A stretch of 32,000 nucleotides of DNA from Pirellula staleyi DSM 6068. GTDB lineage: Bacteria; Planctomycetota; Planctomycetia; Pirellulales; Pirellulaceae. The stretch lies in assembly GCA_000025185.1 (NCBI GenBank), contig CP001848.1, positions 2,400,001 through 2,432,000 on the forward strand, given 5' to 3'. The notes under the pieces were generated by a model that searched no databases, had not been told where the DNA came from, and worked only from the letters and a program-made list of their open reading frames with translations. Of the stretch, positions 3,400 through 23,777 are shown one piece after another (positions within the stretch are counted from its first letter, which is position 1; each line of letters starts with the position of its first letter). A program made the position numbers and the translations under genes.

Positions 3400-6300
3400 C
3401 TACTCCATGGCTCGCATCGGAATGCGGACCGCTTCGAGCTTTTTGATTTCAGCGTCGAGCGTTTGACGTTCTTCGACCGAGAGTTCAATCGCGCGAAGCG
3501 TCTTGATCGCTGCTGCGGCCTGCTGCTGCTGGCCAAGCTCGATCAATTGCCGCGCGGCCTCGAGTAGTTGCTCGCGACTCTTGGGAGCCAGCTCCACGGC
3601 CCGCTCGAAACAGTGCACCGCTTCGGCGCTACGCTTTTGAGCTCGCAAAGCGCGACCGATCGCGAGGTACGAATCGGCTTCTCCCGCTGCGGTGTCGGCG
3701 ATCGAGTGTCGCGCGCGATCGGCAGACTGGGGGTCTTGCGACTGCTGATACAGCTCCGCAAGTTCGTCCCACCACAGCGTTTTACGAGGATGAATTTCCA
3801 GCGAACTATAGAGCTGCTCGCGAAGCTGCTCGCTCTCTCCAGCCGAGCGGAGCGCGTCGATCAGCTGCTGAGCGAGCGCTTCATCCTCGGGCGTAAACTC
3901 GATCGCGATACGCAGCTGGGCGATCGCTCCTTGCACTTCGCCACGCCGCTCGAGCTCCGTGGCAATTGCCTGCCGCAAGATCGGTCGATCCTGCGCACTT
4001 GCGGCGGTTTGCTTGTCGAGCCACGCGATATATGCGGGCAGATCCTGGCACTTTTCTAAAACCGTGGCGAGGGTTTTGCGAGTCACCTCTTGCTGCGCGG
4101 GATCACGCGCGGCGACCACCATGGCGCTTGCTGCTGCCTCAACAGCCTCTTGCGTTTGGCCGAGCTCGGCCAGCGCTTGGGCGTCCAGCTGGTACCACTC
4201 CGCCAGCAGCGCGTCTTCCCGCCCACCGGTGAGGGTCAATCGCTGCGCCACCAGTGGAGCGACTAGTTCGTGCGCTTCACGGCTCCAGCCGAACTCAACC
4301 GCCAGCCGCACGAGCTGATGTTGGTGATGTTGCGAGCGGTTTTTCTCTGCTGCCACTTGCTTGCGGAGCAGCGCGAAACGTTCTTTCGCACCGGCCACAT
4401 CCCCGGTGAGCGCGGTTGCGCGAATCCAGAGCCATTGGGGCTCGAACCACGTCGGCTTGTTTTCGATAATCGGACCGAGGATCGCCACAGCTTCGGCATA
4501 GCGACGATCTTCGACGAGCCAATCGGCCAATGTGTAGCTGCCGGAGTCGCTCAGCAACTTTCGCTCCCGAGCATTCACAAGCAAACTCACCGCTTCCGCG
4601 GGTAGATGAAGCACATCGCGAACATACGAGCCGCAGCGCAGGATGATCGCTTCGTCGCGACTTTGCCCCGCCAGCTCCTGCGCCACTTTCAGGAACTCGG
4701 CCTGCTTGGTAGCCCAGTAGTATCGGCCATCGCGATCGAAAAATTCGTGCGCTTCACCTGGCTCACGCCGCAAATAACGCATGAGTCGCGGCAGCACGGT
4801 CGCGAGCAATTTTTTCTCGAGATCAGCGCGAAGTTTCGTGCCTGGCTTGTTCTCGCCACTCTCTGCCGCAGCGATCGAGTCCTCCAGAGCGCTCCCCATC
4901 GTCCCCGCGATTTCGTCCCAGATCGAAGTCCCTTGCCACTGGCGAAACTGCGGTTCCTTTTCGAGGAGCAAGAGCCCCAACTCGATCGCCGGATTCACCA
5001 GGTGATGATCGGCAAAAATCGATAAGGCGCGCTCGGCCGGCTGATCCTGGTTGCTATGGACCCGCTCGACTACCCACGGAGCTACTTCGCGTAGTGTCGC
5101 CAAAGCAGTTGCTTCAGCGCCGGGCAAATTCAAATCGAGACCAGCCTCGAGCAGGCTTGTCAGTGCGGCGTACCATTCGAGTCGCTCTTGCTGACGGATC
5201 GCTTGGCGGAGCTCGGTGGTTTGATACACGAGGGCACTTTGGAACTGGGCACCGTCGCGACCGAGTGAAGTTTCACCGGCATCAGCTACAGCGCGGCCAT
5301 AAATCTGCGCGAGGAGCAGCTTCAGCCGATCTTGCAATTGGCTCGGCGATGTTTCCTTCAGGAGCTTGATAGCGCGCGTTTCGCTCGAGCGGAAATTGCC
5401 GACGTTCATCTCCTGTTCCGTCAGATTCTCGATCGCCGTGAGCATGAACTTCGCAGGCTTTCCGGCATTCTTAGCGAGTGCTGCATCAAGTTCAGCGGCG
5501 AGTAGCAGAGCTCCCTTTTCTTCACGATCTTGACGCGACAGAAAATCGGCCACATCGACTGCCAGCGATAAACGCTCGCGCGTACCCAGCTTTTCGGTCG
5601 CCAGGCAACGCTCTGCCGTGGCGATCCAGGCATCGACCAATGGCGCGTGGCTCGCAGCTGTTTGCACACCCAGGAGACGAATCACTTTTTCGGGATGTTC
5701 GATCGGCTGATCGGTCGGGAAAGCGCGCGTCCAGTGTTCCATCGCTTGAGTTGCATGCCGCGCGGCAGCTCCTTCAACCATCGCAGCTCGTGCTTCGGCG
5801 AGCATCATCCAAAGCTCGAGCGACCGCTGATCGTGCGGCGCTGGATGCTTGGTTTGCAGCTCGCGTGCGTAACGGACCATCTCGTCGGTCGATGCTTCTT
5901 CGTAGACATCTTCGAGGACCGATTGAAACGCGATCAACTGATCGATGGCGTCGGACTGATCGCGCCCGATGAGCGACTCGGCAAGGACCGACAACAGCCG
6001 GAAATCGCGCGATTGGCGATACGAGCGGCGAATTTCGTCCCCGATATTCCGGAGTGAGTTGGGCTGCTCGAGCACCACCCGCATCTTGTCAAGCGTTCGC
6101 TCGTCGGCCGTTTCTCCGGCGGGGAGGTTGCGAAGTTCGCTCTTCACCTGCTCGCTTAAATCGTACGAACTGGTGCGACGGTACTTGGCCAGCAGCGTTT
6201 GCTGAGAGGCGACTTGCTCGCCGAGCGCCAGACGCCAGCGGGCGACTTGATCGAGCTGAGATTCGTCGAGACTCTGCGCCGCTTCGAGCGGCTGAAGTGT

Positions 6301-9300
6301 AGCAATCGCCTCGCTCAGTTCCCCCACTTCAGCTTGCAACTGAGCGAGTTCCCAGCGCACGCGCGGGCTGGTCGGATCATCGGCCAGCAGTGCGCGAAGC
6401 ATCTGCTGTACCTCGCGCGAGCGATCAGCCGCCAGGAGTGTGAGGTACTCCAGATCGCGTCGCGTCGCGGCGTCGATCTCACCGGGCTGAGGCTTTTCAC
6501 GCAGCTCGGCGAGAAGCTGATCGACCGCAGCAGCGGGCTGTTTGTCGGCGGTCACCAGTTGTGCGGTGAACTGCAACGCCACTTGGTGCAGCGTCGCGCT
6601 CACCAGGAGCAGCGCTTCACGCTCGTCGTCTGCGAGCTGTTTATCGGCCGCGATCGAGGCCGCAATTTCCCGCGCTTCTCCGATCAACTTCCAGCCGTTT
6701 TTCACCAGCGCTGCCGACTCGCTACCGAACTGCTTCTCGAGCGCTGCCATCTTGAGCTGCAGCTGCAAATTCCAGAGCGGACGCTTGTCGGCCAGCTTTT
6801 CGAGTTCGCTGCGCAGTTTTTTACGCGCTGCGATCTTCGCGTCTTGTAGCTGCTGCGAGCGCTGGGTGCGCGTGAGCTTGGGATCACGCACAATGCGCTG
6901 TTGATCATTGGTATCGGCCTGTTTTTCGATTCTCTCAACGACTAGATCCAGCTCCTGCAGTTGATCGACCAGTTGCTGCGTGCCTGTCTTGGCTCGCGAC
7001 AGATTTTTGAGCTCGGGAAGGATCGCGTAGATCTTTTCAAGCTCGCTCGAGCCGCGCTGCTGCTCGATCCATTGCCGATGGAATTCGTCGCGCACTGGGC
7101 CCGTTGTCTTGGCAATGAGCAACTGCAAAATCGGCTTCCCTTGCAGGTCGGAGAGGCCCAGGGAAAGGATCGCTTCGCCGAGCGCCAGCTTCGCGCGGTC
7201 GCTCTGATCGGCCACAAGTCGCTCGAGCAATCGCTCGGCAATCGGCTCCGTCACTTTCTGCTCATCTTCGATCGCTGCAGGAAAGTTCTCGAGGAATTCG
7301 GCAAGCGTTTGGATCTCGAAAATCGGCAGCGTTTCGCAGCGGGCGAGTAGGTTGCGAAGAATCGTCTGCCGAATATGGCTCTGCACGGGCTCGCGAATTT
7401 GGTTGGAAACTGTCAGGTCATACAGTGCCATCCGCGGGCTTTCGCTGGCCGCTTGGGTGATTAGCGCTCGCGCCACTTGGTCTTCAAAACGATATTTTCC
7501 ATCGTTATCGGGCGTGTTAAACGACTGGAATCCACCGACGTTGTTGGCAATCACGCTCGAGGCTTGCGTGAGCTCGATTTCTTCAGCCCGCGTGAGCTGA
7601 CGATGATCGGCAGCAGCTGCGAGCGCCGCGCGAAGCCGCGCATCGAGCGCTTCCTTTTGCCCCATGCTGAGGAGGACGTAATACTCGATCCGTACGCGGC
7701 TATAGCTCGGCTCGGGAACCGCTTTCTTCCATTTTTCCAAGAGCTCGGCAGATTCGGCAATCGCACCATCGTCGACGAAAATCTGCCACGACTTGGCGAA
7801 CAGATGATCGAGGTTGCTGGTGCGCTTCAGTTGCTGCATGCGCTCGATGGCGCTGGTGATGATCTCATGCGCTGCGAGCGATTCTCCCTCGCGATGGAGA
7901 CGATCGGCGGCCACGAGCACTGCCTCGGTCGATTCGGGAAATTGCTTCACATTGTCGAGGTAAAGCTGAATTCCTCGGGCGTTATCGAGCTCGTACTCAA
8001 GTGCCGCTGCAGTCTCATGCCACTGATAACGATGGTACGACGTAGCGGGAGATCGCAGCACAATGGGGCGGGCCAATTCGTGCAGCTGTTGCTGCTGTGG
8101 GGTCGTGAGGATGTCTCGCGCGTATTGCTGCAGTTCTCCCATCAGCCGCAGTTCACCGGCGTGCGGCTGGGTGGCGAGTTGCTTCAGCATCGCTTCGAGC
8201 AGCGCCAGTGTGGGGCGATGGTCGCGATTGTGGCTTGCAAGCTGCAGCATCAGTAGCTGCCAGATCCAGTCGGCATGCGGCTCGTTCTTGAGCAGCTGCA
8301 CTTGGTCGGTCGTATCGCTGTAACGCTGATGTTCGATGAGTGTGCCGATCCAAGCGAGTCGATCGCTCGGAGTGAGTTTTCCCATCGGGGGAGCATTCAC
8401 GCGCAGCTCGCGGAGTGGAAGCTCGATGGCAAGCAGCCCTTCGCGAAGTTTCATCGAGGCTGCGAAATCGGCATCGAATTGCTCGGCCGTGCGGAGCTCG
8501 ATTGTTCGTTCTCGGCGCACTACCTCGCGACCTTCGTCATCGAGCGTCACTTCCACCGTCGCGAGCCACTGCTGACCCACCTGGATGAACTTTTCGAAGC
8601 GTGATGCCAGACGATAGGTGCCGTTGAACTTGGTCCAGAGCTCGACGATCGTGAGCCGCTTGGTATGCACCAGCAGCTTAACGCTGTGGCGTTCATCTCC
8701 CAGCGGATCGCGCAGTTCGAGCCAAACATGGTCGGGCTTGTCTGCCGGAACAAGCGCCGCGCGAAACTCCCGGTGGTGGTAAAGCAAATGCGCCTGCAGT
8801 TCGCTCGTCAGAATGACCGGCGGCTGTTCCAGATCACTTGCCGCAGCAGCGCGTGAAAGATGCAGTTGATACATCGGCCAGAGATAGCCTCGCGTGTCGC
8901 GCGTGCAGTAGTTCGTCTCGGGATTGCTCCCCTCCTGACGTACCAGCCAGGCCTTGGGCGAGAGCAGAATCCGCTGTTCGCTACTCAAGGTGAACCCAGG
9001 CTGCGACAGATCGCGGCGCGACTCCGTTTGACGAATCGCCACGCTTTCGGTCAGACTTTGTGGTTGCGCTGAACGCAACAACTGCTGCGCGAGCTGAAAC
9101 GCCTCCTGCGACCAAGTGGCAGGCTGCTTGTTGATCGAATGGAGCTTGCGCGGGCTCGCGGGAATCGCTCCTGCGATCATTCCGATCGGGTCGTGAATCG
9201 CATCCACATAGGGACGAGACCTAGTCTCCGCCAGCATTCCTCGCTCTTGGCCTTTTCGATCGGATAAGCGGCGGCCGGTGATCGCGAACGCTTGTCCTCT

Positions 9301-12300
9301 TCCCGTAATACCGCTCCCCGGAAAATTGCCAACACTAAGCATGAAATCATGCTCCGGCAGAGACTGTTCACCAAAATCGGTGAGGTCGACCGAGAGGGCA
9401 GAGCCGTCGACATCGGTTCCGAGCGACAGGGTATCGCCGAGGGCAAAATAGTTTTCGGTTTCTTTGAGTGCATTCAGGCTGAGGAGGGAATCGGTCACAT
9501 AGCGACGATTGTCGTCGATTTCCCCTCCAAACGGATCGCTCCCAAAGCCCCCGCCTATCCCGCCGCCCCCCAGTCCACCTCCACCCATGCTCATGCCACC
9601 ATAACGGCCAAGCATCTGTCCTGTGATGAAGTCAAAGGTGGTCAAATGGTCTTTATAGCCATCGCTAAAACCCCAACTCGAGCCCCCCGCCCACAGGCTA
9701 GGGATCATGGCAGCGCCGGTGGAACGGTAGATTTGATCGAGGTTCTCGCGCAAGTCTGCAAGCGTGGGTGGAGTGGCAAGCTGCGTGCGGGCCTGCGCCA
9801 TCAGCTGCGCGCGGAAGGCACGCGCGGCAATCATTTGCTGATAGCGGAGTGCTTCGCGCACCTTGGTTTGAGCATCGGCAAAGAATCGCTCTCCATCCTT
9901 CATCTGCATCGTCCGTTTGACTTTGAAGCGTGCCCGATCTTCTTCGGTCTCGAGCACGAGCAGCGATGTGTACGGAGTGATCAGGTGATACTCGGCCGAG
10001 AGGGCGATGATTTCGCTGACAATCTCGGCTGAATTTCCTTCGAGCAGCAGCTGATCGATATGCTGTTTGGCCCACAGCCGCGGCAGGAACGAGGCCTCGT
10101 CGGAGCTGGCGTCGCTTGCAGGAGCAGCCACCTCCACCGACTGGCGAAACTCGACAGGTTTGCCCGCTGAAGTGCCACGCACGATGATTTCGCCAGCGAG
10201 TTTTTCCCCTTCCGGCAAATAGCGGCCGACCACGATTTGCTGTGCTCCGGCGGGCAAATTGGGGAGCTGCCGAGGATAGACACGTGCCGTCCGAATGCCG
10301 CTGATTTCGAGCGTCAGATTCTGTAGCGCAGGACGTGTGATTTCTGTCAGCAGTTCAGCAGCCACTTGTGCTGGAGTTGCTTCCCCAGTTACCTCGCGAC
10401 GGCTTCCGCCACTACCGCGCGTGATCGCTTCGAGTAGCGTTGCATCGAGCAGGCTCGACGTGCTGATCGCATGCAGCACCACTTGCTTGCTCGCAGCCTG
10501 TTTCTGAACCTTGGCCGCGAGAGCACCGGTATCGACATGCGGCGCACTAGTGCGGAGTCCATCTCCCAGGTAGATCAAGTGCGAACTAGCGGCGGATCGT
10601 TCGATGGCGGTGGCGAGTCCTTGATCGAGATTCGTCCAGCCGAGCGCCGAGCGCGAGCTGATGAATCGCAGCAGCTTCTCGATCTCGGCTTCACTGGCGA
10701 CCACCGGTTCGTCGGATGCCCAGCAAGCGGAGGAGTCGATCGCTCCCAGCAGCACGCGATCGTCGGGGCCTAGCGAGCGGAGCAGGGCGGTGACCGTTTG
10801 CAGTTGCAAGCGACGTGCTTCGCCGCGCATCGAGGCGCTTGTATCAACCAGCAGCGTGAGCTGCAGTGGCGCGCTACTGGCCACTTCAGTGCGCCGCCAA
10901 GCAGCATCGCCACCTGGCGGATTGAGCAGCAAAAGAAAGTAGCCATCGTCGCCGCGTCGATGCGGAATGAGTGTCAGCGGAGATTGCTGCGGCGCTGTTT
11001 CGATCGTGAGTTCAAAATCACGTGTTGGTCGATAATTGGCCGCCGAGAATTCGGCCCGCGCGGTGAGGGGCGACTGCGAAACGCGGAGCGGATGCGTCGT
11101 GCTTGCGACCTTCGTCAGCGGCAGATGCGAAACGATGTTCGCCGTGATCTGCAAATCGGCAAGCGGGTTCTGCTGCAGCAGTTCACTCGCCAGGTTATAG
11201 CGGTAGCGAATCTGCTGGCCATGCTTGGGGAGGACCTGGGTATAGACGATCTTGATCCGCTTTTCCCCCTTCGCTGGAATCGGATAAACGCGGGCCTGGA
11301 ACTGATTTCCCGCTGTCCATTCGAGCAGCCCCGGGTCGCGTTTTTCGCGCAGGATCGTTTCGTAAATCTCGCGGGCTCGCTGCCGCTCGACAACATCGGC
11401 CTCGACCAGTTCGTCACCAATCCACATGCCGAATCCGGAGATCGAAGCATCCGCTGGGAGGGGAAAGTGGAACGTCCCTTCGAGTACCGCATCAGTTCGG
11501 TTGATGAACGACTCGACGATCGTGGTCCGCGCGATTTGATCGCGGATATCAATCGTCACGTGATGTGTTCCGACATCGAGCGAAATGCTTCGGCCATCGA
11601 CGTTGGCGATCAGCGAGCCGAGTAGTTGGTCGCTTCGTTTTCCCAAATAGGCGCTCAGCCAGAGGGGCGTTTTATCGAGTGCTTCTAGCGATTTTCCCGA
11701 TGCTCGCAGCAACTCGGTCCCGCTCAGTTTCGTCACCTTCTGGTCGGGGCCTGTGAGGGTAAGTTCGCGTTTGCCAGAAGCGGTTCGGATTTCTCCCGCT
11801 GTCAGCGTGATTGCCGTCGGACTCGTCAGGACAAGCTGCGCTCCTGGGCCAGCGATGAGCGACGAGTTGCCCGCGAGCGCGATCGCAACGGCGCTCCGGC
11901 TTTGGTCGTCGACCCGCAGCATATCGCCCGGGAAAAGCAACGTCAGATTGGTCAGCGGAGTCCAGCGCGTCGCCTCAGCCGACTTGATCCAGGCCACTCC
12001 AATCACATCAGTCACGTCCCCCACACGGCCGTCGGCTGTCAGCGTGTCGGAGACTCGCAGCAGCTGCGGATCGACTTTTCCTTGCAGCAGTTCGACGGTG
12101 AAGCTGCGGGGAATTTCGCCTGCATGACGTGGGACGATTTGAAACGTTTTGGGTACGACAGAGTCTCCCTCGAAACTGATTTGAAACGAAGCGAGCGACT
12201 GATCGGCGAGCGTGCGAGCGGTGCCGGACAGGATGCGCGGCTGTTGCTCGCGAGGAGCGCGCGGCTGATCGAGGGTGATCGTCGCGGGATCGAGTCCCAG

Positions 12301-12870
12301 CAGCGCGAGCGGATGCATGCCGGTGCTGGCGGAGGTTCCGAGCGTGACCTCGGTGGTTCGCGCGGCGCTTGTGGGAATTTCGATCTGCGACGAATCGAGA
12401 TGACGCGCCACGTTCTGCTGCTCATCGACTTGCCACAGATTGAGATCGTCTTTCACAAAGTACCGCTCGGGAGAAATGCTCAGCCGCAGATCGCTCGGGC
12501 CTTGCCCCACTACTTCCAGAATTTGGTCTCCCAGCTGAAGCTGACCACGATAGCTCGGCGCGTCGTGAATTTTGGCGATCGCTTGCTCGAGCGCGGTCGC
12601 GCTTTCGCCGGGACTACCGAGGTAGATACCGGCGGCGAGAATCAGCGACGCAGCCAGGGTGACGAGGAGGCGAATGGCAGCCATGGAAGTTCTTTCGCGA
12701 AGGTTGGGAGAGGAGTTCGCGCGGAGGTTGAATTGAGCAAGGGACTCGGATCGTAAACGGGCCAAGAGCGCACGATCGATCGGCGCAGCATCGCGGGCCA
12801 AGAGGCCGACGAGGTCGCGCAGGAGTTTGTCGGAGTCGTCAGGTGGAACTGGATGTGGTGAGCCGGTCAT
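3400..12870 (-). CDS. giant (3,156 aa) single-pass membrane protein: short cytoplasmic N-terminus, TM anchor, FecR-like, VIT and VWA domains, Gly-run, about 2,000 aa of helical/TPR-like repeats; candidate anti-sigma factor/sensor of the upstream ECF sigma
   Basis: A single uninterrupted 9.47-kb ORF. Its ATG overlaps the sigma-factor stop (ATGA at 12867-12870). Motifs are listed in the sub-features below. The post-VWA tail HLITPYTSLLVLETEED is typical of bacterial VIT-VWA proteins. The C-terminal about 350 aa have TPR-like A/L/Y/E periodicity (SYLAIGRALRAQKRSAEAVHCFERAVELAP). Confidence 0.85.
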   Translation of the reverse strand: MTGSPHPVPPDDSDKLLRDLVGLLARDAAPIDRALLARLRSESLAQFNLRANSSPNLRERTSMAAIRLLVTLAASLILAAGIYLGSPGESATALEQAIAKIHDAPSYRGQLQLGDQILEVVGQGPSDLRLSISPERYFVKDDLNLWQVDEQQNVARHLDSSQIEIPTSAARTTEVTLGTSASTGMHPLALLGLDPATITLDQPRAPREQQPRILSGTARTLADQSLASFQISFEGDSVVPKTFQIVPRHAGEIPRSFTVELLQGKVDPQLLRVSDTLTADGRVGDVTDVIGVAWIKSAEATRWTPLTNLTLLFPGDMLRVDDQSRSAVAIALAGNSSLIAGPGAQLVLTSPTAITLTAGEIRTASGKRELTLTGPDQKVTKLSGTELLRASGKSLEALDKTPLWLSAYLGKRSDQLLGSLIANVDGRSISLDVGTHHVTIDIRDQIARTTIVESFINRTDAVLEGTFHFPLPADASISGFGMWIGDELVEADVVERQRAREIYETILREKRDPGLLEWTAGNQFQARVYPIPAKGEKRIKIVYTQVLPKHGQQIRYRYNLASELLQQNPLADLQITANIVSHLPLTKVASTTHPLRVSQSPLTARAEFSAANYRPTRDFELTIETAPQQSPLTLIPHRRGDDGYFLLLLNPPGGDAAWRRTEVASSAPLQLTLLVDTSASMRGEARRLQLQTVTALLRSLGPDDRVLLGAIDSSACWASDEPVVASEAEIEKLLRFISSRSALGWTNLDQGLATAIERSAASSHLIYLGDGLRTSAPHVDTGALAAKVQKQAASKQVVLHAISTSSLLDATLLEAITRGSGGSRREVTGEATPAQVAAELLTEITRPALQNLTLEISGIRTARVYPRQLPNLPAGAQQIVVGRYLPEGEKLAGEIIVRGTSAGKPVEFRQSVEVAAPASDASSDEASFLPRLWAKQHIDQLLLEGNSAEIVSEIIALSAEYHLITPYTSLLVLETEEDRARFKVKRTMQMKDGERFFADAQTKVREALRYQQMIAARAFRAQLMAQARTQLATPPTLADLRENLDQIYRSTGAAMIPSLWAGGSSWGFSDGYKDHLTTFDFITGQMLGRYGGMSMGGGGLGGGGIGGGFGSDPFGGEIDDNRRYVTDSLLSLNALKETENYFALGDTLSLGTDVDGSALSVDLTDFGEQSLPEHDFMLSVGNFPGSGITGRGQAFAITGRRLSDRKGQERGMLAETRSRPYVDAIHDPIGMIAGAIPASPRKLHSINKQPATWSQEAFQLAQQLLRSAQPQSLTESVAIRQTESRRDLSQPGFTLSSEQRILLSPKAWLVRQEGSNPETNYCTRDTRGYLWPMYQLHLSRAAAASDLEQPPVILTSELQAHLLYHHREFRAALVPADKPDHVWLELRDPLGDERHSVKLLVHTKRLTIVELWTKFNGTYRLASRFEKFIQVGQQWLATVEVTLDDEGREVVRRERTIELRTAEQFDADFAASMKLREGLLAIELPLRELRVNAPPMGKLTPSDRLAWIGTLIEHQRYSDTTDQVQLLKNEPHADWIWQLLMLQLASHNRDHRPTLALLEAMLKQLATQPHAGELRLMGELQQYARDILTTPQQQQLHELARPIVLRSPATSYHRYQWHETAAALEYELDNARGIQLYLDNVKQFPESTEAVLVAADRLHREGESLAAHEIITSAIERMQQLKRTSNLDHLFAKSWQIFVDDGAIAESAELLEKWKKAVPEPSYSRVRIEYYVLLSMGQKEALDARLRAALAAAADHRQLTRAEEIELTQASSVIANNVGGFQSFNTPDNDGKYRFEDQVARALITQAASESPRMALYDLTVSNQIREPVQSHIRQTILRNLLARCETLPIFEIQTLAEFLENFPAAIEDEQKVTEPIAERLLERLVADQSDRAKLALGEAILSLGLSDLQGKPILQLLIAKTTGPVRDEFHRQWIEQQRGSSELEKIYAILPELKNLSRAKTGTQQLVDQLQELDLVVERIEKQADTNDQQRIVRDPKLTRTQRSQQLQDAKIAARKKLRSELEKLADKRPLWNLQLQLKMAALEKQFGSESAALVKNGWKLIGEAREIAASIAADKQLADDEREALLLVSATLHQVALQFTAQLVTADKQPAAAVDQLLAELREKPQPGEIDAATRRDLEYLTLLAADRSREVQQMLRALLADDPTSPRVRWELAQLQAEVGELSEAIATLQPLEAAQSLDESQLDQVARWRLALGEQVASQQTLLAKYRRTSSYDLSEQVKSELRNLPAGETADERTLDKMRVVLEQPNSLRNIGDEIRRSYRQSRDFRLLSVLAESLIGRDQSDAIDQLIAFQSVLEDVYEEASTDEMVRYARELQTKHPAPHDQRSLELWMMLAEARAAMVEGAAARHATQAMEHWTRAFPTDQPIEHPEKVIRLLGVQTAASHAPLVDAWIATAERCLATEKLGTRERLSLAVDVADFLSRQDREEKGALLLAAELDAALAKNAGKPAKFMLTAIENLTEQEMNVGNFRSSETRAIKLLKETSPSQLQDRLKLLLAQIYGRAVADAGETSLGRDGAQFQSALVYQTTELRQAIRQQERLEWYAALTSLLEAGLDLNLPGAEATALATLREVAPWVVERVHSNQDQPAERALSIFADHHLVNPAIELGLLLLEKEPQFRQWQGTSIWDEIAGTMGSALEDSIAAAESGENKPGTKLRADLEKKLLATVLPRLMRYLRREPGEAHEFFDRDGRYYWATKQAEFLKVAQELAGQSRDEAIILRCGSYVRDVLHLPAEAVSLLVNARERKLLSDSGSYTLADWLVEDRRYAEAVAILGPIIENKPTWFEPQWLWIRATALTGDVAGAKERFALLRKQVAAEKNRSQHHQHQLVRLAVEFGWSREAHELVAPLVAQRLTLTGGREDALLAEWYQLDAQALAELGQTQEAVEAAASAMVVAARDPAQQEVTRKTLATVLEKCQDLPAYIAWLDKQTAASAQDRPILRQAIATELERRGEVQGAIAQLRIAIEFTPEDEALAQQLIDALRSAGESEQLREQLYSSLEIHPRKTLWWDELAELYQQSQDPQSADRARHSIADTAAGEADSYLAIGRALRAQKRSAEAVHCFERAVELAPKSREQLLEAARQLIELGQQQQAAAAIKTLRAIELSVEERQTLDAEIKKLEAVRIPMRAME
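9520..9603 (-). other. glycine-run low-complexity linker (YGGMSMGGGGLGGGGIGGGFGSDPFGGE)
   Basis: Read directly from the translation. It lies between the VIT-VWA module and the C-terminal two thirds of the protein. Confidence 0.8.
10340..10869 (-). other. von Willebrand factor A domain with MIDAS-type DxSxS (approx. aa 668-843)
   Basis: LQLTLLVDTSASMRG carries D-T-S-A-S. It is followed by GPDDRVLLGAIDSS, WTNLDQGL and HLIYLGDG, which are typical VWA strand/loop motifs. Confidence 0.75.
11227..11570 (-). other. VIT (vault/inter-alpha-trypsin) domain (approx. aa 434-548)
   Basis: The sequence is VTIDIRDQIARTTIVESFINRTDAVLEGTFHFPLPADASISGFGMWIGDELVEADVVERQRAREIYE...GNQFQARVYPIPAKGEKRIKIVYTQVLP. 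This matches the characteristic VIT layout. Confidence 0.75.
11745..12036 (-). other. FecR-like beta domain (approx. aa 279-375)
   Basis: GRVGDVTDVIGVAWIKSAEATRWTPLTNLTLLFPGDMLRVDDQSRSAVAIALAGNSSLIAGPGAQLVLTSPTAITLTAGEI follows the FecR pattern: G.v..v.G.v......W.p......l..GD.l.t...s.a.l.l..gs.l.l.p.s.l.l.....l.l..G. Boundaries are estimated by eye. Confidence 0.5.
12616..12684 (-). other. transmembrane anchor of the giant protein (aa 63-85, MAAIRLLVTLAASLILAAGIYLG)
   Basis: This is the only long hydrophobic stretch in the protein. It is preceded by a 62-aa charged, helical-looking segment ending RERTS (positive-inside). Confidence 0.7.
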
Positions 12871-13451
12871 GGGAGCACCCTTTCTCCGGTGACGCGTGCC
12901 AATGCCGAGCGCAAGGCACGACGAGCGCGGGCCAGTTTGGACTGGAGTGCGGTGGTGGAGGTGGCGTCGCGGGCTGCCAGTTCGTCGAGCGATAGTTCAT
13001 CGAGATAGCGAGCCACGAGCAATTCTTCGTAGTCGAGCGGCAGCATGCTGAGCGCTTCGCGGACCGATTGAGCCGTCTCGGCGGCGCTCAGCAGATCGGC
13101 CGGAAGTGGCTCGCTCGTTTCGAGCTGCGCCGACTCGGCGTCGAACAGACTGGTTTCAAAACTGGGAGGTCGCGTTTGACGGCGTCGAAAGTAGAGTGCT
13201 GCTTGTCGCCGCGCGATTCCCGAGAGCCAGCCCCACAACGTTCCGCGCGACGGATCGAACGTACGGAGGCTTCCCGCCGCCGCCAGGAATGTTTCCTGCA
13301 CGATGTCGGCCACTTCATGCTGATGGGGTCCGACGCGCCGCGCCACCGATTGCCAAATGCGCGGCGCAAGGGTGTCGTACATCGACTCCCAGGCCGACGC
13401 TTGGCCCGCCAGAAGACCTCTGGCTATCGTGTGCTCGCTCGGCAGTTCCAC
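12867..13451 (-). CDS. ECF-type RNA polymerase sigma factor (sigma-70 family, group 4)
   Basis: 194 aa. Region 2 reads HEVADIVQETFLAAAGSLRTFDPSRGTLWGWLSGIARRQA. Region 4 reads LSMLPLDYEELLVARYLDELSLDELAARDATSTTALQSKLARARRALR. The start is GTG at 13451. The stop overlaps the downstream giant ORF start. Confidence 0.9.
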   Translation of the reverse strand: MELPSEHTIARGLLAGQASAWESMYDTLAPRIWQSVARRVGPHQHEVADIVQETFLAAAGSLRTFDPSRGTLWGWLSGIARRQAALYFRRRQTRPPSFETSLFDAESAQLETSEPLPADLLSAAETAQSVREALSMLPLDYEELLVARYLDELSLDELAARDATSTTALQSKLARARRALRSALARVTGERVLP

Positions 13452-19264: not shown

Positions 19265-19594
19265 TTATTGCGGCACGCCTGAGCGAACGCGGCTGCATAT
19301 ATCGACGAGTGTGGCTACAGCCGACTCGAGCGACGCGTCGTCGCTACCATGCCGGGCTAAGTCTTCGACAATCGCTGCTGGTTTGGTCATCTGATCAAAG
19401 CCGTGGCTGCCCCCAGCCCCTTTGATCTGATGGGCTAAGCGGCCCACTTCGGCCCAGTTTCTCTGCTGGGTTGCTGCGACGATGCCTTCAATACGCCGTG
19501 GAAGCTCTTCCACAAACATCTCCACGATCTCTGCCAAATCGGGATCATCGCCCAGCGATGAATAAAGAAGGGGACCCATAGTCAGGGCGGTCAT
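19265..19594 (-). CDS. stand-alone HPt (histidine phosphotransfer) domain protein
   Basis: 109 aa. The phospho-His motif is RLAHQIKGAGGSHGF (HxxKG....G), within a four-helix-bundle-sized protein. Confidence 0.85.
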   Translation of the reverse strand: MTALTMGPLLYSSLGDDPDLAEIVEMFVEELPRRIEGIVAATQQRNWAEVGRLAHQIKGAGGSHGFDQMTKPAAIVEDLARHGSDDASLESAVATLVDICSRVRSGVPQ

Positions 19595-20108
19595 TTGATA
19601 TTTCCTCAGTGCATGAAAGCGAACAAAGGGAGCGTCGGCTCGTTGGGGCAGAACTCGCAGACGCTGGCTGTGCTTGAAAACTACCTTACGAAACCTCCTG
19701 GGGCCGCTAGTGGGGGTGGCGTTCTCCTTGTCTTGCGCAAAGCCGCAAGCGGAAACCGCTCCCCGAGGGGTGCATGGGTGGGAAAATGCGGGCTATGCAT
19801 CAAATGCAAGTGATGCGTTGTGGTCTTACAACCGGCACTGTCGGCGCAGAAGTGTCAGCTTGTTTAAGCGGCCAGGGGGATTGGGGAAAATGAAAGTAAA
19901 AGTGCTGATTGGTGAAGAAGGGAAAGCTGCGGCGACGATAGCACTCTCCAGATCGGCAGCTTGAGTTGTCGGTTGGTCGCTCTGAGTTACACGCAACGGC
20001 CTATCGCATTTGCAACGCAATGCATCGCGAGGCCGGCGGTCCGGCGACTCGTTGTTTCGATGTTTCCGTTTCCGTCTCCCTCGTATTCCGGTTTTCAGGA
20101 GTTTTCCC

Positions 20109-20630
20109 ATGAAGAGTCGTGCTGTTGTTGCTGCGATCTTGGCTGCTGGTCTCGTGCTGTTCACCAGCGCCTCGGCCTCGGCTTTCGATCTCCTCGGTTG
20201 TGGTTGCGAAGCTGCCCCAGCTTGCTGTGCCCCAGCCCCCACTTGCTGCAAGCCAAGCCGCTGCTGCAAGCCAAAGTGCTGCCGCGTTCCACGTTGCTGC
20301 AAGCCAAAGTGCTGCAAGCCTGCTTGCGAGCCAACCTGTGGCGCTCCTGTGAGCTGCGCCGCTCCTGCTCCTACCTGTGCCGCTCCTGCTCCTAGCTGCG
20401 GTGCCGAACCAAGCTGCGCTGCTGCTCCTAGCTGCGGTTGCGAAGCTCCTAAGTGCTGCAAGCCAAAGTGCTGCCGTCAGCCACGCTGCTGCAAGCCAAA
20501 GTGCTGCAAGCCAGTTTGCTGCAAGCCAGCTTGCGAACCAAAGTGCTGCAAGCAACGCTGCTGCCGTCAGCCACGCTGCTGCAAGCCAGTTTGCTGCAAG
20601 CCAGCTTGCGAACCAACCTGCTGCGGTTAG
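20109..20630 (+). CDS. exported cysteine/proline-rich repeat protein (CC-K/R-x-x pentads; keratin-associated-protein-like composition)
   Basis: AGGAG at 20097-20101 sits 7 nt upstream of ATG 20109. The signal peptide is [25 protein letters not shown]|FD. The mature 148 aa contain 44 Cys and 27 Pro by hand count. A hairpin terminator lies downstream. The ORF-track start at 20010 adds an Arg-rich non-signal leader and is unlikely. Confidence 0.75.
20196..20627 (+). repeat. 15-nt-period coding tandem repeats (TGCTGCAAGCCANNN) in two duplicated blocks
   Basis: Block A (about 20196-20340) and block B (about 20440-20627) both start G/S-CGCEA and end [10 protein letters not shown]. Near-identical stretches such as CCACGCTGCTGCAAGCCA(AAG/GTT)TGCTGCAAGCCAG recur. 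Confidence 0.85.
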
Positions 20631-20705
20631 TCTGATTCATCAAGTGTGCAACGCCTGACGCACCACACCACTGCGACACAGGTAACGCACACTACTCAGA
20701 AATAA

Positions 20706-20739
20706 GAAGCCCCCTGCATCATCAGCTGGGGGCTTCTTT
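20706..20739. terminator. hairpin terminator between the convergent Cys-rich gene and lipoprotein gene
   Basis: GAAGCCCCC (20706-14) and GGGGGCTTC (20728-36) form a perfect 9-bp stem. The stem is extendable by GC/GC around a 7-nt loop. TTT follows, and the upstream flank is A-rich. Confidence 0.6.
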
Positions 20740-20815: not shown

Positions 20816-21232
20816 CTAACGACCAGGTGCCGGACTTCCAATCACCAGCGGAATCGAGCCATCGCTCGTGGGATACTGCACCACCAGTGGGGTCGCTTGC
20901 GGCGACGTATAGATCGGTGGCAAGAAGAGTGGCACACCAATCGATTCGAGCGTGAAGCGATACTCGCCCGGTTCGAGCACGAGTGGCCCTTCTGCCCCCA
21001 ACTTCACCAGCTCGAAACTTCCATCGGCCCGGGTATCCCCAAAGCCGATCTTTGTCCAGCTGCCGTTCGTATTTTGGTGCACCGAGATCTGAATCTCGCT
21101 CACCGGACTTCCTTGAATCACCAGCGAGCCGGCTGTTCCACCTTCCACCGGTTGGGGACGACACCCGCCCATCGCCGCCAGTAGGATCGCACCGCCGATC
21201 AGGCCTAGTAACTTACGCTGCGCGCTAGTCAT
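20816..21232 (-). CDS. small lipoprotein with carboxypeptidase-regulatory/transthyretin-like beta-sandwich pattern
   Basis: 138 aa. The signal has a lipobox-like LLAAMGG|C. The pattern GSLVIQGSPVSEIQISVHQ....GFGDTRADGSFEL......LEPGEYRFTL is typical of CarboxypepD_reg-like domains. The ATG overlaps the PepSY gene stop (ATGA at 21229-21232). Confidence 0.7.
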   Translation of the reverse strand: MTSAQRKLLGLIGGAILLAAMGGCRPQPVEGGTAGSLVIQGSPVSEIQISVHQNTNGSWTKIGFGDTRADGSFELVKLGAEGPLVLEPGEYRFTLESIGVPLFLPPIYTSPQATPLVVQYPTSDGSIPLVIGSPAPGR

Positions 21233-22659
21233 CGTTTTCCCTCCGTGGCGAGCACTCCTGCGGAAAGTTCTTCCGCGGTGCTAACCACCGGCACACTGCC
21301 GGGCTCGTCGAGCGACAGCCATTTGCGAGCGGCTGGGATGCGGCGAAGCACGCTCCACTCCAGCAGCAGCACGACGACGAGCGAGAGGCCAAAGAGTGGC
21401 AAGTAGATTCCGAGCGCGAGAATCACGAGCGCCAAAACGGTCGACCAGCGACTCGCGGTGAGCGCTTTCGGGGCCCCGAGCGATCCGGCTTCGCGACGTC
21501 GCCACCACATCACCACACCGCTCGCCCCCAGCAGCACTAAACCGGCCGCTGTGAGCAGTCCCAGCAGTTGATTGAGCCGTCCAAATAGGGCCCCTTCATG
21601 CAGCGCGATCCCGTAGCCCACCACCTGATCGACCCAGTGGCGATCGGAAAAATCTTCGCGGCTGACGATCGCGCCGGTCGAGCTATCGACCACGATGGTG
21701 GTTCGCAGCGGACGATTGGCGGCCATCGATTTCACCGTCCAGTTGGTTCCTCCTCGCTGCGGCGGGCTGATCAGCACCGGATGGGCCAGGTTCAAACCAC
21801 GCGCCACTTCCGCCACGCGATTCACCCCGGCAAGATCGACCGGCTTGTCTTCGCCGCGATTGCCCCGAGCACCTGTGTGCCCCTCGTGATCGCCACTGCT
21901 GCGCCGCGCTGCACGTTTTTCACTGCCGTTGCTCCAGTCTTGCTGCGTCACGGCGGTGCCGGTCAGCTGCCGCATTGTGCGGAAGTAGTCTCCCCAGAAT
22001 TTCGACCACGGAAGACCACTCACCAGCAGCAAGATGGCAAAGGCCGAGATCCACATTCCGAACACGCCATGCAGATCGCGCCAGAAAATGTTCTTCGCCC
22101 CCAGCAGTCGCGGATAGAGGACCCCGCCGAGTCCTTTTGCGTTCCGCGGCCACCATAGGAACAACCCCGAGAGAAGCATCACCAAGGTCCACGATGCCGC
22201 GAGTTCGACGAGATACGACCCGCGATCTCCGAGCATCAATTCTCCGTGAATGCGAAAGATCAATCGCATGAATCGATCTTGCTCATGCACTTGATGAATC
22301 ACCGCCAGCGACGTGGGATGCACATAGCAGCGATCGGTAACGCCGTGCTGCTTCACTAGCACGCGCGCGGCCGAGGTGATGGTGCGAGGCAATTCGTAAC
22401 TTGCAAACGTTGCCTCGGGGTTGGCTTTCAGGGCCGCTTCAATTTGCGCATCGACCTCGCGCGGCGCAGCGATATCGGTCAAATGGTTTTGTGAATACTC
22501 GATCGCATCTTCGATCTCTTGCTTGAACAGATAGATCGCTCCACTGATCGAAAGCACGATGACAAAAGGGATGCAAAACAGTCCGGCATAAAAATGCCAG
22601 CGCCACACCGCTCGGTAGTCGGGCCACGAGCGGCGTGGCGTCGGTTGTAGATTCGTCAT
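21229..22659 (-). CDS. PepSY-associated TM-helix protein (PiuB/FoxB-like putative di-heme membrane reductase)
   Basis: 476 aa. The N-terminus AVWRWHFYAGLFCIPFVIVLSISG is diagnostic of the PepSY_TM family. There are four TM-proximal His motifs: RWHFYAG, RIHGELMLG, RDLHGVFG and IALHEGALFG. Periplasmic PepSY-like segments lie between the TM pairs. Confidence 0.85.
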   Translation of the reverse strand: MTNLQPTPRRSWPDYRAVWRWHFYAGLFCIPFVIVLSISGAIYLFKQEIEDAIEYSQNHLTDIAAPREVDAQIEAALKANPEATFASYELPRTITSAARVLVKQHGVTDRCYVHPTSLAVIHQVHEQDRFMRLIFRIHGELMLGDRGSYLVELAASWTLVMLLSGLFLWWPRNAKGLGGVLYPRLLGAKNIFWRDLHGVFGMWISAFAILLLVSGLPWSKFWGDYFRTMRQLTGTAVTQQDWSNGSEKRAARRSSGDHEGHTGARGNRGEDKPVDLAGVNRVAEVARGLNLAHPVLISPPQRGGTNWTVKSMAANRPLRTTIVVDSSTGAIVSREDFSDRHWVDQVVGYGIALHEGALFGRLNQLLGLLTAAGLVLLGASGVVMWWRRREAGSLGAPKALTASRWSTVLALVILALGIYLPLFGLSLVVVLLLEWSVLRRIPAARKWLSLDEPGSVPVVSTAEELSAGVLATEGKR

Positions 22660-22682
22660 GAGCCGTCAGCTTCGTGGAGAGT

Positions 22683-23777
22683 TTAGTTTTGCGAGACTGC
22701 TTCGCCACCATTGCCGCTGTGCATAGCGCGATGAACGAGCAGGTCGATCGAATTGGGGAGGAGTCGCACGCCACCATCGGCGGTCATGGCCATCGCCCCA
22801 CCCGGATGAAAACTGCGCGGCGCAAAGAACCCGGTGAAGTGCGTCACGACGTCGGGAATGCGGCTGTTGGGGGTGCTATAGCCGTTGGTCAGCGTGCTCA
22901 TCGCGCCGCTGTGGGCCCACGACGTGCCACGGCCGCGCAGTGCCGCGCTGGCAGCTCCGCGCCAGCTCGTTTTCTGCGGCCAAATCGTCGCCAGGTCGGG
23001 ATTCTCGATCGATCCGCTGGGGCCATTACTCCAGCCGCCACCACTTCCCGACATCCCGGGAAAGGCTTGCAGCGTTGCAGTGACTCCCGACGAGCCGTTG
23101 AGCGTTGCTTGATACGGGGCCTTCGGAAGCTGACCTGCAGGGAGCGTGAAATCGGGACCCACGCTCCGCACCGTTTCGCTCATGAACACCGTGTTCGATG
23201 TTCCATCGGTCAGATCGGCAAAGCGGGCCCCCGAGTTCTCGTACACCACACCATCGGTGCGCCAGCGGAGGTCGTAGTTCGTACCGGTGCCACTGCCGAA
23301 ACTGACCATGTAGTTGATGCCCGAATAACGCGCGCCCCCCGCCCCTTCGTTAATGACCGGAGCAGGATCGCTTGGGCACAGCGCCACGGTGATCGGCTGG
23401 GCAAACGATGCCGCAAACGCGGGATTTGGAACGAGCGCATTGAACGGACCGGTGAACGCCGGCTGAGCAAAGTCGAGCGTGTTTTGGAGGTTCAGCTGTT
23501 CGATGAACGGCAGCAGTCGCGCTTGCGGCGAAAACCCCTGCGTGTTCGGCAAATAGTTCTGGGCATTCGTCATCGGAAATGCGCCGAACGTATCGTGGTA
23601 GTTATGCGCGGCGAGTCCCCACTGCCTGAGTTGATTCGAGCACTGGGTGCGACGCGCAGCTTCGCGTGCGGCTTGCACTGCCGGAAGTAGCAGCGCCACA
23701 AGCACGCCAATAATGGCAATCACAACGAGTAGTTCCACCAAAGTGAAACCTCGTCGACGGGAATAGGTACGGGACAT
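22683..23777 (-). CDS. DUF1559 protein with prepilin-type N-terminal cleavage/methylation domain (planctomycete pseudopilin-like family)
   Basis: The N-terminus is [61 protein letters not shown]. The C-terminus is [23 protein letters not shown]. Both ends are canonical for the family. Confidence 0.92.

Follow-up and report, generated by a model that had tools for sequence, protein, structure and literature searches.

The make-up of the SDS-resistant, protein-rich planctomycete envelope has been debated since the 1980s, and to our knowledge the YTV proteins are the sole Cys-rich envelope components identified so far. The locus described here lies in a window of 32,000 nucleotides of Pirellula staleyi DSM 6068 (contig CP001848.1, positions 2,400,001 to 2,432,000) and contains an ORF of extraordinary Cys content, raising the question of whether this ORF is a gene and, if so, what its product does. 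A conserved, probably abundant secreted protein with 20–30% Cys would be a new candidate for a cross-linking matrix, or for periplasmic metal or redox buffering.

The ORF runs on the plus strand from an ATG at 20109 to a TAG stop codon at 20628–20630 (20109–20630, 173 aa), and an AGGAG ribosome-binding site is located 7 nt 5′ of the ATG. Existing annotation offers some grounds for supposing that there is no gene here at all, the GC-rich repeat being open by accident or the true gene lying on the opposite strand. In GCA_002483025.1, a near-identical public genome, the ORF was left without a gene call, and on a Logan contig an antisense ORF (window 20001–20555, minus strand) was called in its place; a look-up of the exact product of the ORF returned nothing; moreover, 19 of the 21 loci keep one antisense frame free of stops. 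However, the plus frame is open in all 21 related loci, and a six-frame comparison gave the lowest dN/dS for the plus frame (0.14–0.32), compared with 0.26–0.48 for the antisense frame that shares its wobble position and values above 1 for the remaining four. The open antisense frame itself has a dN/dS above 1.5, and the codon-aligned antisense frame is interrupted by six stops in the low-GC locus L018 (47% GC). Orthologues differ by in-frame indels of entire repeat units, the start codon, Shine–Dalgarno site and signal peptide keep a conserved place in the plus frame only, and the terminator hairpin comes after the plus-strand stop codon. These frame tests refute the opposite-strand or accidental reading, which we regard as having next to no chance of being right. 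The ORF is a genuine gene, coding in the plus frame as the sequence-only reading of this DNA had held. The ribosome-binding site, Sec-type signal peptide and downstream terminator named in that reading were all located (Table 1).

Among genomes ~99.5–99.8% identical over the region, the Cys-rich CDS carries no SNPs, compared with two to six in its flanks. Chance does not explain the composition of the ORF: it contains 44 Cys codons, against 47 summed over 14 other genes of the window, its pentads are tandem DNA repeats and it has homologues. It is also an outlier in codon usage, with CCA and CCT making up 96% of Pro codons (15–42% in other genes) and GCT 68% of Ala codons (0–29% in other genes). 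This bias is lineage-specific, being common to L006 and L010 and absent from L004, L005, L007, L008 and L009, and it is thus weak evidence for abundance of the protein.

Table 1. Mapped and predicted features around the Cys-rich gene, in window coordinates
Feature	Position	Strand	Detail
Divergent single-domain Hpt phosphotransfer gene	19265–19594	−	Pfam Hpt, E = 9.7e-15
Bipartite promoter-like motif TGAAG-N16-GACGATA	19913–19940	+	1 match in the window, 0.02 expected
Conserved leader core	19934–20052	+	GACGATAGC, P1 hairpin (19954–19971), long-range P2, P3, invariant GCGAGGCCGGCGGT (20027–20040)
Pyrimidine tract GTTTCCGTTTCCGTCTCC (20062–20079) and Shine–Dalgarno site AGGAG (20097–20101)	20062–20101	+	Both conserved in alignments
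Signal peptide, residues 1–25	20109–20183	+	Predicted cleavage between ASA and FD; layout recurs in homologues
Mature Cys/Pro-rich cationic protein, 148 aa	20184–20627	+	Composition, tandem DNA repeats, plus-frame dN/dS
Block 1, opens GCGCEA	20196–20339	+	Layout of mature protein
Ala/Pro spacer	20340–20435	+	Layout of mature protein
Block 2	20436–20627	+	Layout of mature protein
Terminator-like hairpin between convergent genes	20704–20738	+	−26.6 kcal/mol, z = −5.4

By inspection, the signal peptide consists of MKSR, a hydrophobic stretch and then TSASASA before the FD of the mature chain, and is of the Sec type; its layout and the Shine–Dalgarno site are kept across the family described below. 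We considered and rejected three other fates for the product. The MKSR start of the signal contains no twin-arginine motif, and Tat export was set aside. Inspection of the signal region found no acceptable lipobox, with D at −4 and charged residues preceding the first Cys (in relatives, E, D or R occurs after the hydrophobic region and ahead of that Cys), and the lipoprotein reading was dropped. Finally, a RiPP or SCIFF-type precursor does not agree with the lack of a nearby maturase, the length of the chain and the Sec signal.

The mature protein contains 44 Cys (30%), 27 Pro, 21 Ala, 17 Lys and 8 Arg, with no His, Trp or Tyr and a single Phe as the only aromatic residue. Our recount agrees with the hand counts of Cys, Pro, His and aromatic residues in the sequence-only reading, and the two blocks split by an Ala/Pro spacer that it described could be mapped (Table 1). 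Cys and Pro together make up 48% of the chain (Pro alone 18%), the net charge is approximately +18, and there are 16 CC pairs and 14 CC-x(1–3)-P-x units resembling those of keratin-associated proteins. These pentads are encoded by tandem DNA repeats (15 nt × 10 and 75 nt × 2.2), because of which the repeat number changes between close orthologues, whose lengths are 149, 165 and 170 aa at 83–85% identity. One Cys of a CC pair is sometimes lost among orthologues. Such drift in repeat number, together with the occasional loss of a paired Cys, looks like selection on a bulk property of the chain. Furthermore, 46% of 161 family members have an odd number of Cys, which leaves no room for a fixed map of intramolecular disulfides. 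AlphaFold2 predicted a helix in the signal peptide only and no fold (mean pLDDT 47.7), and we propose on the basis of this model that the mature protein is intrinsically unstructured.

To place the protein among known families, homology searches were carried out. Pfam at E ≤ 10 returned two keratin models only, both below their cut-offs (Keratin_B2_2, PF13885, the better, 23.4 versus 27 bits; Keratin_B2, PF01500, 10.9 versus 28.7 bits), while NCBIfam gave no match to the protein and a PDB profile search gave zero matches. This bears out the earlier statement that it is not recognisable as a member of any described bacterial family, in so far as it falls within no curated family. The protein is not an orphan, though. 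Members from cultured strains are already present in NCBI and UniProt under the name 'keratin-like protein', an automatic name that is backed by no Pfam or NCBIfam model. Literature searches for Pirellulales proteins described as keratin-like, metallothionein-like or Cys-rich gave no specific result, and no paper on the 'keratin-like protein' entries was found. Homologues were detected by phmmer down to E = 5e-20, and the profile search returned 325 cluster representatives at E ≤ 1e-3 (88 at E ≤ 1e-10) in Pirellulales. These matches make the protein the extreme member of a sizeable, apparently Pirellulales-specific family.

The family traits present in this protein are the signal peptide, an F-(E/D)-L-L start, CGC(E/D)AAPxC repeats, two basic segments around the Ala/Pro–Cys spacer and a last Cys located 1–2 residues from the end. 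Within the family, no motif is more conserved than CGC, and the acidic CGC(E/D) repeats are kept family-wide. At the place of the CC-K-P-x pentads, most relatives have amphipathic or His-rich basic segments, including amphipathic helices of the GLFxRLHxK type. His reaches at least 5% in 34 of 161 relatives (21%), where it adjoins Cys, as in RCHHHNRCC and HHRCHHRHHGCGC. The keratin-like pentads are thus a lineage-specific elaboration that came from tandem DNA duplication. The 'keratin-like protein' entries from cultured Pirellulaceae, namely Roseimaritima multifibrata WP_145352108.1, Rhodopirellula sp. SM50 PAY18465.1 and Stieleria neptunia QDV43093.1, are members of this family according to the profile search (E ~2e-13). 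They likewise have a signal peptide, CGCE repeats, two basic segments and a CGCG or CGCN end, but differ in having amphipathic GLLxKLF basic segments instead of CCKPK pentads and only ~15–20% Cys. As members occur in cultured strains (Stieleria, Roseimaritima and Rhodopirellula sp. SM50), direct tests are possible.

What, then, does the resemblance to hair proteins mean? The mammalian high-sulfur and ultra-high-sulfur keratin-associated proteins share with this protein the C-C-x-P-x pentads, ~30% Cys, high Pro, the absence of a globular fold and a repeat number that shifts by tandem duplication. They act as disulfide cross-linkers of a matrix, and by analogy the same role may be proposed here. 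However, mammalian keratin-associated proteins are cytosolic, whereas this protein is bacterial and Sec-exported, and its CGC(E/D)AAPxC repeats and Ala/Pro spacer are missing in them. Since no more than 2 of 18 family members gave any match to the keratin model and the pentads go back to local tandem duplication, the likeness is convergent rather than homologous, in line with the convergence suggested by the sequence-only reading.

Our favoured reading, held tentatively and with a little less than even confidence, is that the product is abundant, unstructured and cationic and becomes cross-linked by disulfides within the envelope. The unfolded chain would be exported by Sec and cut after ASA by signal peptidase I. 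In the envelope, its 44 thiols, some of them in CC pairs that are each followed by Pro and Lys or Arg, would oxidise to form mainly intermolecular disulfides, among the chains themselves and with other Cys-rich wall proteins, while the positive charge would favour binding to anionic envelope polymers. The envelope would thereby be hardened by a covalent matrix or glue, a functional parallel, without homology, to the keratin-associated proteins of hair and the OmcA/OmcB complex of Chlamydia. Expression would be driven from a dedicated, very conserved promoter-like element and pass through a long structured 5′ leader. Here we infer the cleavage, oxidation, cross-linking, wall location and abundance of the protein. 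Its conserved place, its upstream region and its outlier codon usage appear to fit a core, abundant product.

Two bacterial precedents for such a role can be compared. OmcA and OmcB of Chlamydia, in the same PVC superphylum, are also small, exported, Cys-rich envelope proteins, and they act by intermolecular disulfides as proposed for this protein. No Pfam model of chlamydial cysteine-rich outer membrane proteins matched at E ≤ 10, though; OmcA has a lipobox where this protein has a type I signal, and this protein also has roughly double the Cys density, in a repetitive chain. The YTV wall proteins are, like this protein, Cys-rich, secreted and from Planctomycetia. Wall preparations from planctomycetes are rich in protein, and the Cys-rich YTV proteins are among their constituents, having been found in SDS-boiled material (PMC8567305, PMC12673574, PMC5287468). 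In contrast to the YTV proteins, this protein has no Tyr and therefore no YTV motif, gives no YTV Pfam match, and is much smaller and far richer in Cys. As neither family's model was matched, the YTV and OmcA parallels are analogies only.

Several observations weigh against the envelope reading and open the way to its main rival. Cross-linking does not account for the His next to Cys in relatives, which seems to point towards metals, and no Dsb-type or wall-synthesis gene was found as a conserved neighbour. By composition alone (44 of 148 residues Cys, no His, Trp or Tyr, one Phe), the protein falls within an operational definition of metallothioneins, which the CGC and CC motifs and the Lys and Arg residues also fit. 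The rival, rather unlikely but still to be taken seriously, is an exported metallothionein-like metal–thiolate sponge, in which the unfolded chain, after Sec export, would wrap Cu(I), Zn(II), Cd(II) or similar ions, or As(III) or Hg(II), in thiolate clusters whose charge is balanced by Lys and Arg, so that soft metals are buffered or detoxified in the periplasm. Metallothioneins, including long modular ones, have the same ~30% Cys in CxC and CC motifs, are Lys-rich, lack aromatics, are disordered without ligand and are built of modular repeats; the prediction of no fold in the absence of ligand (AlphaFold2), the family-wide acidic CGC(E/D) repeats and the His of relatives would agree with this role. 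Neighbouring genes add to it: a YHS protein (TRASH-class, metal-binding) is encoded directly upstream in L004, L005 and L008, and a PepSY_TM gene is convergent to the Cys-rich gene in the window. There is also a precedent, as Csp1 of methanotrophs is an exported copper-storage protein and thiolate metal storage outside the cytoplasm exists; Csp1, however, has a Tat signal and a Cys-lined four-helix bundle, whereas this protein has a Sec signal and no predicted bundle (AlphaFold2).

Other evidence disfavours the sponge. No metallothionein Pfam model, including those of bacterial SmtA/BmtA, was matched at E ≤ 10, and the Pro content is unusually high for metallothioneins. After export by Sec, its free thiols would sit in a compartment in which the Cys-rich proteins of the wall are presumably joined by disulfides, and a freely drifting repeat number implies no fixed cluster stoichiometry. 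Among conserved neighbours there is no efflux pump, metal sensor or chaperone, and the YHS gene occurs in a single lineage. The Cys-rich gene keeps its synteny and seems to have been passed on vertically, in contrast to the patchy occurrence of resistance genes.

The conservation of CGC and the export of the protein could also be explained by a periplasmic thiol–disulfide redox buffer or catalyst, in which CGC and vicinal CC would cycle between dithiol and strained disulfide and aid oxidation and isomerisation of Cys-rich envelope proteins. The redox potentials of CXC peptides are near that of protein disulfide isomerase, and an AhpC/TSA-like protein of 867 aa is encoded near the Cys-rich gene in L001, L002 and L008. 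We consider this role improbable: neither a thioredoxin fold nor any other was predicted, there is no linked recycling partner of the DsbB, DsbD or VKOR type, and the AhpC-like match is under its Pfam cut-off (24.9 versus 26 bits) and, in L008, 7 kb away. More improbable still is a secreted antimicrobial or toxin-like peptide comparable to defensins, to which the cationic, Cys-rich and secreted chain and the amphipathic basic helices of relatives might point; with its 148 aa, 44 Cys and variable number of repeats, the chain has no defined knot, the surroundings contain no gene for immunity, processing or dedicated export, and the gene belongs to the syntenic core rather than to a variable island.

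The control of the gene also bears on the envelope reading. Both the chromosomal position of the Cys-rich gene and the region upstream of it are conserved, and the promoter-like motif, structured leader and Hpt neighbour found there are new in this analysis. Across the matching loci the motif reads TNAAG-N16-GACGATA, with a constant gap of 16 nt and no variation in GACGATA. It is single in 20 of 21 matching loci, lies 5′ of the Cys ORF in the loci checked and is absent from 131 other loci; a second match in L007, inside an unrelated coding region, was dismissed as chance. A scan for the sigma-70 consensus found no promoter. ECF-sigma promoters are bipartite, with −35 and −10 elements at a fixed spacing of 16–17 nt and AAC normally present in the −35 element. 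In the motif the spacing is 16 nt, but the −35-like element is TNAAG rather than AAC, and its reading as an alternative-sigma promoter is tentative.

Downstream of the motif, the transcript probably has a conserved, structured 5′ leader of ~170 nt. A covariance model of the leader found 16 loci at E = 2.5e-25 to 2.4e-10, each directly 5′ of a family ORF, with 80.7% of cells paired compared with 33–50% when the partners were slid, and six pairs change on both sides. RNAalifold independently recovers P1 and the inner part of P3, and for P2 four different complementary sequence pairs were seen by eye. Formal covariation support is only moderate owing to a one-column register shift of P2 in the alignment of L004, L005, L008, L010 and L143. 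Rfam 15 gave no match overlapping the leader core at E ≤ 1, and the matches that it did give were weak, at chance level, and fell on the ORF, 3′ of it or on its upstream edge. In a metagenome scan with GCGGGGCCGGCGGT-N-GTTTC, only 4 of the 120 motif matches parsed from 120 returned stretches were real, the hits being mostly due to chance in GC-rich DNA. Nearer the start codon, CTCC is paired with GGAG in all eight sequences folded by RNAalifold, a model that suggests occlusion of the Shine–Dalgarno site by leader pairing. A leader of this complexity and conservation suggests conditional rather than constitutive expression, which counts against the envelope reading.

The Hpt gene is the divergent neighbour of the Cys-rich gene in nine loci with differing outer neighbours. 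A more far-reaching version of the envelope reading, which we think doubtful, is that the family forms a major cystine- and proline-rich matrix component of the Pirellulales envelope and is regulated by a novel module of alternative-sigma promoter, riboswitch-like leader occluding the ribosome-binding site and linked Hpt phosphorelay protein. Such a matrix component would have been overlooked because gene callers skip the gene or call the antisense strand, and because trypsin yields mostly pieces of 2–5 residues or long, Cys-laden peptides; annotation pipelines do often overlook the family, and standard tryptic proteomics would mostly do likewise. Planctomycete gene regulation is nearly unexplored, and both the invariant promoter-like motif and the structured leader offer new points of entry.

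At the 3′ end, a simple terminator scan missed the hairpin between the convergent genes, probably, from our reading of its criteria, because the outer loop is beyond the allowed length and the T run is weak. None of 200 shuffled sequences folds as well as this hairpin.

The coding frame of the Cys-rich ORF (window 20109–20630, plus strand, 173 aa) had to be tested because one antisense frame is also open, the gene is uncalled in GCA_002483025.1 (L020 1779–3001, contig DLHC01000024.1), where the region is ~99.5–99.8% identical to the window, and a gene caller picked the antisense ORF instead on a truncated Logan contig (L022 1–531). The plus frame is the only one open in 21 of 21 related loci, and the codon-aligned antisense frame contains six stops in L018, a locus of 47% GC. 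Nei–Gojobori dN/dS for six orthologue pairs was lowest in the plus frame (0.14–0.32), compared with 0.26–0.48 in the antisense frame sharing the wobble position and values >1 in the remaining four frames. Start codon, Shine–Dalgarno site and signal peptide keep a constant position across all related loci, and near-identical genomes show no substitutions in the 522-nt coding sequence versus two to six in the flanks. The plus frame, which the sequence-only reading had taken as coding, is therefore the gene, and the ORF is real; that the stretch is not a gene, as the open antisense frame and the missing and antisense calls could be read, is extremely improbable given that the plus frame alone is open in every locus at such low dN/dS. 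The family appears able to be missed by gene callers.

Inspection of the sequence reproduced the earlier description of the ORF exactly. Its first 25 residues have the classical layout of the Sec-type signal peptide proposed there; Tat export was ruled out by the absence of a twin arginine, and a lipoprotein by the absence of an acceptable lipobox. The predicted mature chain of 148 aa contains 44 Cys and 27 Pro, as counted before, along with 21 Ala, 17 Lys and 8 Arg; His, Trp and Tyr are absent and Phe occurs once, which again agrees with the earlier description. CC pairs number 16 and CC-x(1–3)-P-x units 14, and the calculated pI is 8.8 (25 basic and 7 acidic residues). Since 14 other window genes combined have 47 Cys codons, compared to 44 in this ORF alone, and the pentads (CC-x-P-x units) are encoded by tandemly repeated DNA (10 copies of a 15-nt unit and 2.2 copies of a higher-order 75-nt unit), the composition is not due to chance. 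Codon usage is also a strong outlier, with CCA/CCT for 96% of Pro (15–42% in other window genes), GCT for 68% of Ala (0–29%), GGT for 86% of Gly (10–36%) and AAG for all Lys. This bias is common to the related loci L006 and L010 and absent in L004, L005, L007, L008 and L009; it may stem from translational selection, from avoiding CG-rich repeats or from the copying of repeats. AlphaFold2 with the family alignment gave a mean pLDDT of 47.7 and placed the sole helix in the signal peptide, so that the mature protein is most safely regarded as non-globular.

Features of the Cys-rich gene, its upstream region and neighbouring genes
Feature	Location	Strand	Remark
Single-domain Hpt phosphotransfer gene	window 19265–19594	-	divergent neighbour of the Cys-rich gene
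Bipartite motif T-N-A-A-G, 16 nt, GACGATA	window 19913–19940	+	upstream of the Cys-rich ORF
Conserved leader, ~170 nt	window 19934–20108	+	downstream of the bipartite motif
Proposed P1 hairpin	window 19954–19971	+	sequence varies by lineage, complementarity kept in each
Invariant GCGGGGCCGGCGGT	window 20027–20040	+	in the leader
Pyrimidine tract GTTTCCGTTTCCGTCTCC	window 20062–20079	+	3′ end CUCC
Shine–Dalgarno AGGAG	window 20097–20101	+	7 nt upstream of ATG
Predicted signal peptide	residues 1–25 of the ORF	+	MKSR, hydrophobic core, then ASA|FD
Block 1	window 20196–20339	+	mature chain; begins GCGCEA
Ala/Pro spacer with single Cys	window 20340–20435	+	between blocks 1 and 2
Block 2	window 20436–20627	+	mature chain
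Strong 3′ hairpin	window 20704–20738	+	-26.6 kcal/mol, z = -5.4
YHS-domain gene	L004 8577–9383, L005 8857–9603, L008 8719–9576		same strand as the Cys-rich gene

The uncharacterised family of secreted Cys-rich proteins to which the window protein belongs, as its extreme member, spans the Pirellulales. The sequence-only reading recognised no described bacterial family, and this stands for curated families, as Pfam returned only Keratin_B2_2, under its threshold, and NCBIfam and PDB searches gave no matches; relatives, however, are plentiful, with 25 found by phmmer (best E = 5e-20) and 325 cluster representatives at E ≤ 1e-3 (88 at E ≤ 1e-10) by exhaustive profile search. A genome scan gave 16 loci, 15 in Pirellulales or Planctomycetaceae MAGs and one (L016 4615–5886) in a MAG labelled 'uncultured delta proteobacterium', whose ORF continues into out-of-frame-looking sequence and could reflect mis-binning or a frameshift. 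The window itself is Pirellulaceae-like in its DUF1559 plus N-methyl gene and in Obg and PGK, which share 73–77% identity with their counterparts in a Pirellulaceae MAG. Family members share an order of signal peptide, mature start F-(E/D)-L-L(-D/N-R), acidic CGC(E/D)AAPxC repeats, a basic segment, an Ala/Pro spacer with single Cys, more repeats, a second basic segment and an end such as CGCGA or CGCN. Most members have basic segments that are either amphipathic (GLFxRLHxK, LLDRIFxC) or rich in His (RCHHHNRCC), and CC(K/R)xx(K/R) pentads take their place only in the window's sub-clade. Cys averages ~20% in the family, compared to 30% in the window protein, which is above all 161 members measured (maximum 26.5%). 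Because the keratin model hits just 2 of 18 members, the likeness to mammalian keratin-associated proteins (KAPs) is lineage-specific and, as had been proposed, convergent. Members in cultured strains (Stieleria neptunia, S. maiorica, S. magnilauensis, Rhodopirellula sp. SM50 and Roseimaritima multifibrata) bear the automatic name 'keratin-like protein' in NCBI and UniProt, for which we found neither an underlying HMM nor a paper on these members; their presence in culture makes the function directly testable.

On indirect evidence, the window protein could be a disulfide-cross-linked envelope matrix protein, a reading we favour tentatively. Sec export would deliver it to the envelope, where disulfide cross-linking would build the matrix. 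Cystine and proline were reportedly abundant in planctomycete walls in the work of Liesack et al. in 1986. We count for a matrix role the predicted Sec export, the Cys and Pro content (48% of the mature chain) with KAP-like pentads and no predicted fold, the outlier codon usage, and a core, syntenic locus whose expression signals are heavily conserved. The same applies to repeat number, which drifts in close orthologues (149, 165 and 170 aa at 83–85% identity), to CC pairs occasionally reduced to one Cys, and to the random parity of Cys, whose count is odd in 46% of members. Planctomycete walls are, in addition, protein-rich and contain the Cys-rich YTV proteins (PMC8567305, PMC12673574, PMC5287468). 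Digestion with trypsin, taken not to cut before Pro, would yield mainly pieces of 2–5 residues, besides one 48-mer that carries 10 Cys and three peptides of 14–26 residues with 5–7 Cys each; with the gene call also absent, the protein would therefore escape standard wall proteomics. An exported metal–thiolate sponge is possible but rather doubtful: the composition falls within the operational definition of a metallothionein, His reaches ≥5% and clusters with Cys in 34 of 161 relatives, a YHS-domain protein adjoins the gene upstream in one lineage and a PepSY_TM gene lies nearby in the window, whereas the Pro content is high, the Sec route leads to a presumably oxidising compartment, no metal-handling neighbour is conserved and inheritance looks vertical. 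A redox buffer based on CGC motifs is unlikely, and an antimicrobial peptide very unlikely.

The genes downstream differ by locus, with PepSY_TM/DUF1559 in the window and MIP, CitMHS, DUF1501 and others elsewhere. The divergent upstream neighbour is a single-domain Hpt gene in nine loci (window, L006, L007, L009, L011, L018, L143, L145 and L149), and since the outer neighbours beyond it vary among these (PGK, Lar_N or an unknown gene), the two genes form a conserved unit, which points to a pair with a common regulatory region. Convergent with the Cys-rich gene in the window is an operon (20816–23777, minus strand) whose products are a DUF1559/N-methyl protein, a PepSY_TM protein and a third protein, of 138 aa, that matches no Pfam family and has an N-terminus resembling that of a lipoprotein; other loci do not keep this arrangement beside the Cys-rich gene. 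The YHS (TRASH-class metal-binding) domain found directly upstream on the same strand in one lineage is C-terminal in a 268-aa protein. Further away, an ECF-type sigma factor gene (Sigma70_r2 and r4_2; window 12867–13451, minus strand) precedes, on the same strand, a gene (3400–12870) whose 3156-aa product combines a VIT domain with TPR repeats, and L017 carries a homologue of this sigma factor ~6 kb from its Cys-rich gene.

The promoter-like motif, the leader and the linked Hpt gene are newly described here for this family. The Hpt/Cys-rich intergenic region, 514 nt in the window, is more conserved than the coding sequence. T-N-A-A-G-N16-GACGATA matches once in the window versus 0.02 expected, is single in 20 of 21 matching loci (the remaining one has an extra match within a coding region), lies upstream of the ORF wherever the locus was checked, being invariant there in about 20 loci, and has no match in 131 other loci, which are unrelated; we read it tentatively as a dedicated alternative-sigma-factor promoter.

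The leader that follows is a candidate structured RNA. P1 contains G-U pairs on the plus strand, the candidate long-range helix P2 occurs as four different complementary pairs (GTCGC/GCGAC, TCATCAG/CTGGTGA, GCCAAA/TTTGGC and TGCCGAG/CTTGGCA), and the inner helix P3 shows one compensatory change; the CUCC of the pyrimidine tract can pair with GGAG of the ribosome-binding site. A covariance model of the leader core found 16 instances (E 2.5e-25 to 2.4e-10), each of them immediately 5′ of an ORF of this family. Paired cells make up 80.7% compared to 33–50% in slid controls, and six pairs change on both sides, with a covariation score reached by 18 of 500 shuffles. Support for the structure is moderate because the model alignment left a one-column register shift in P2. 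No Rfam 15 family matched the leader. Weak matches at the correct position were obtained in distant loci (L001, E = 0.006; L149, L150 and L018, E ~1.6), in which GACGATA and a CAGC...GCTG hairpin are discernible by eye.

Finally, one sub-family (P0016, P0017, P0027, P0043, P0062, P0179, L012 and others) is marked by the signal MKWNI...SQSFGFELLDRMLG and by a conserved tail at the C-terminus, PMPPAPVVDPSAF-x-P-x-QRRVV-x-AS...R, which may be a sorting or anchoring motif. The N-terminal ELLDRML motif reappears internally as LLDRIF-x-C.
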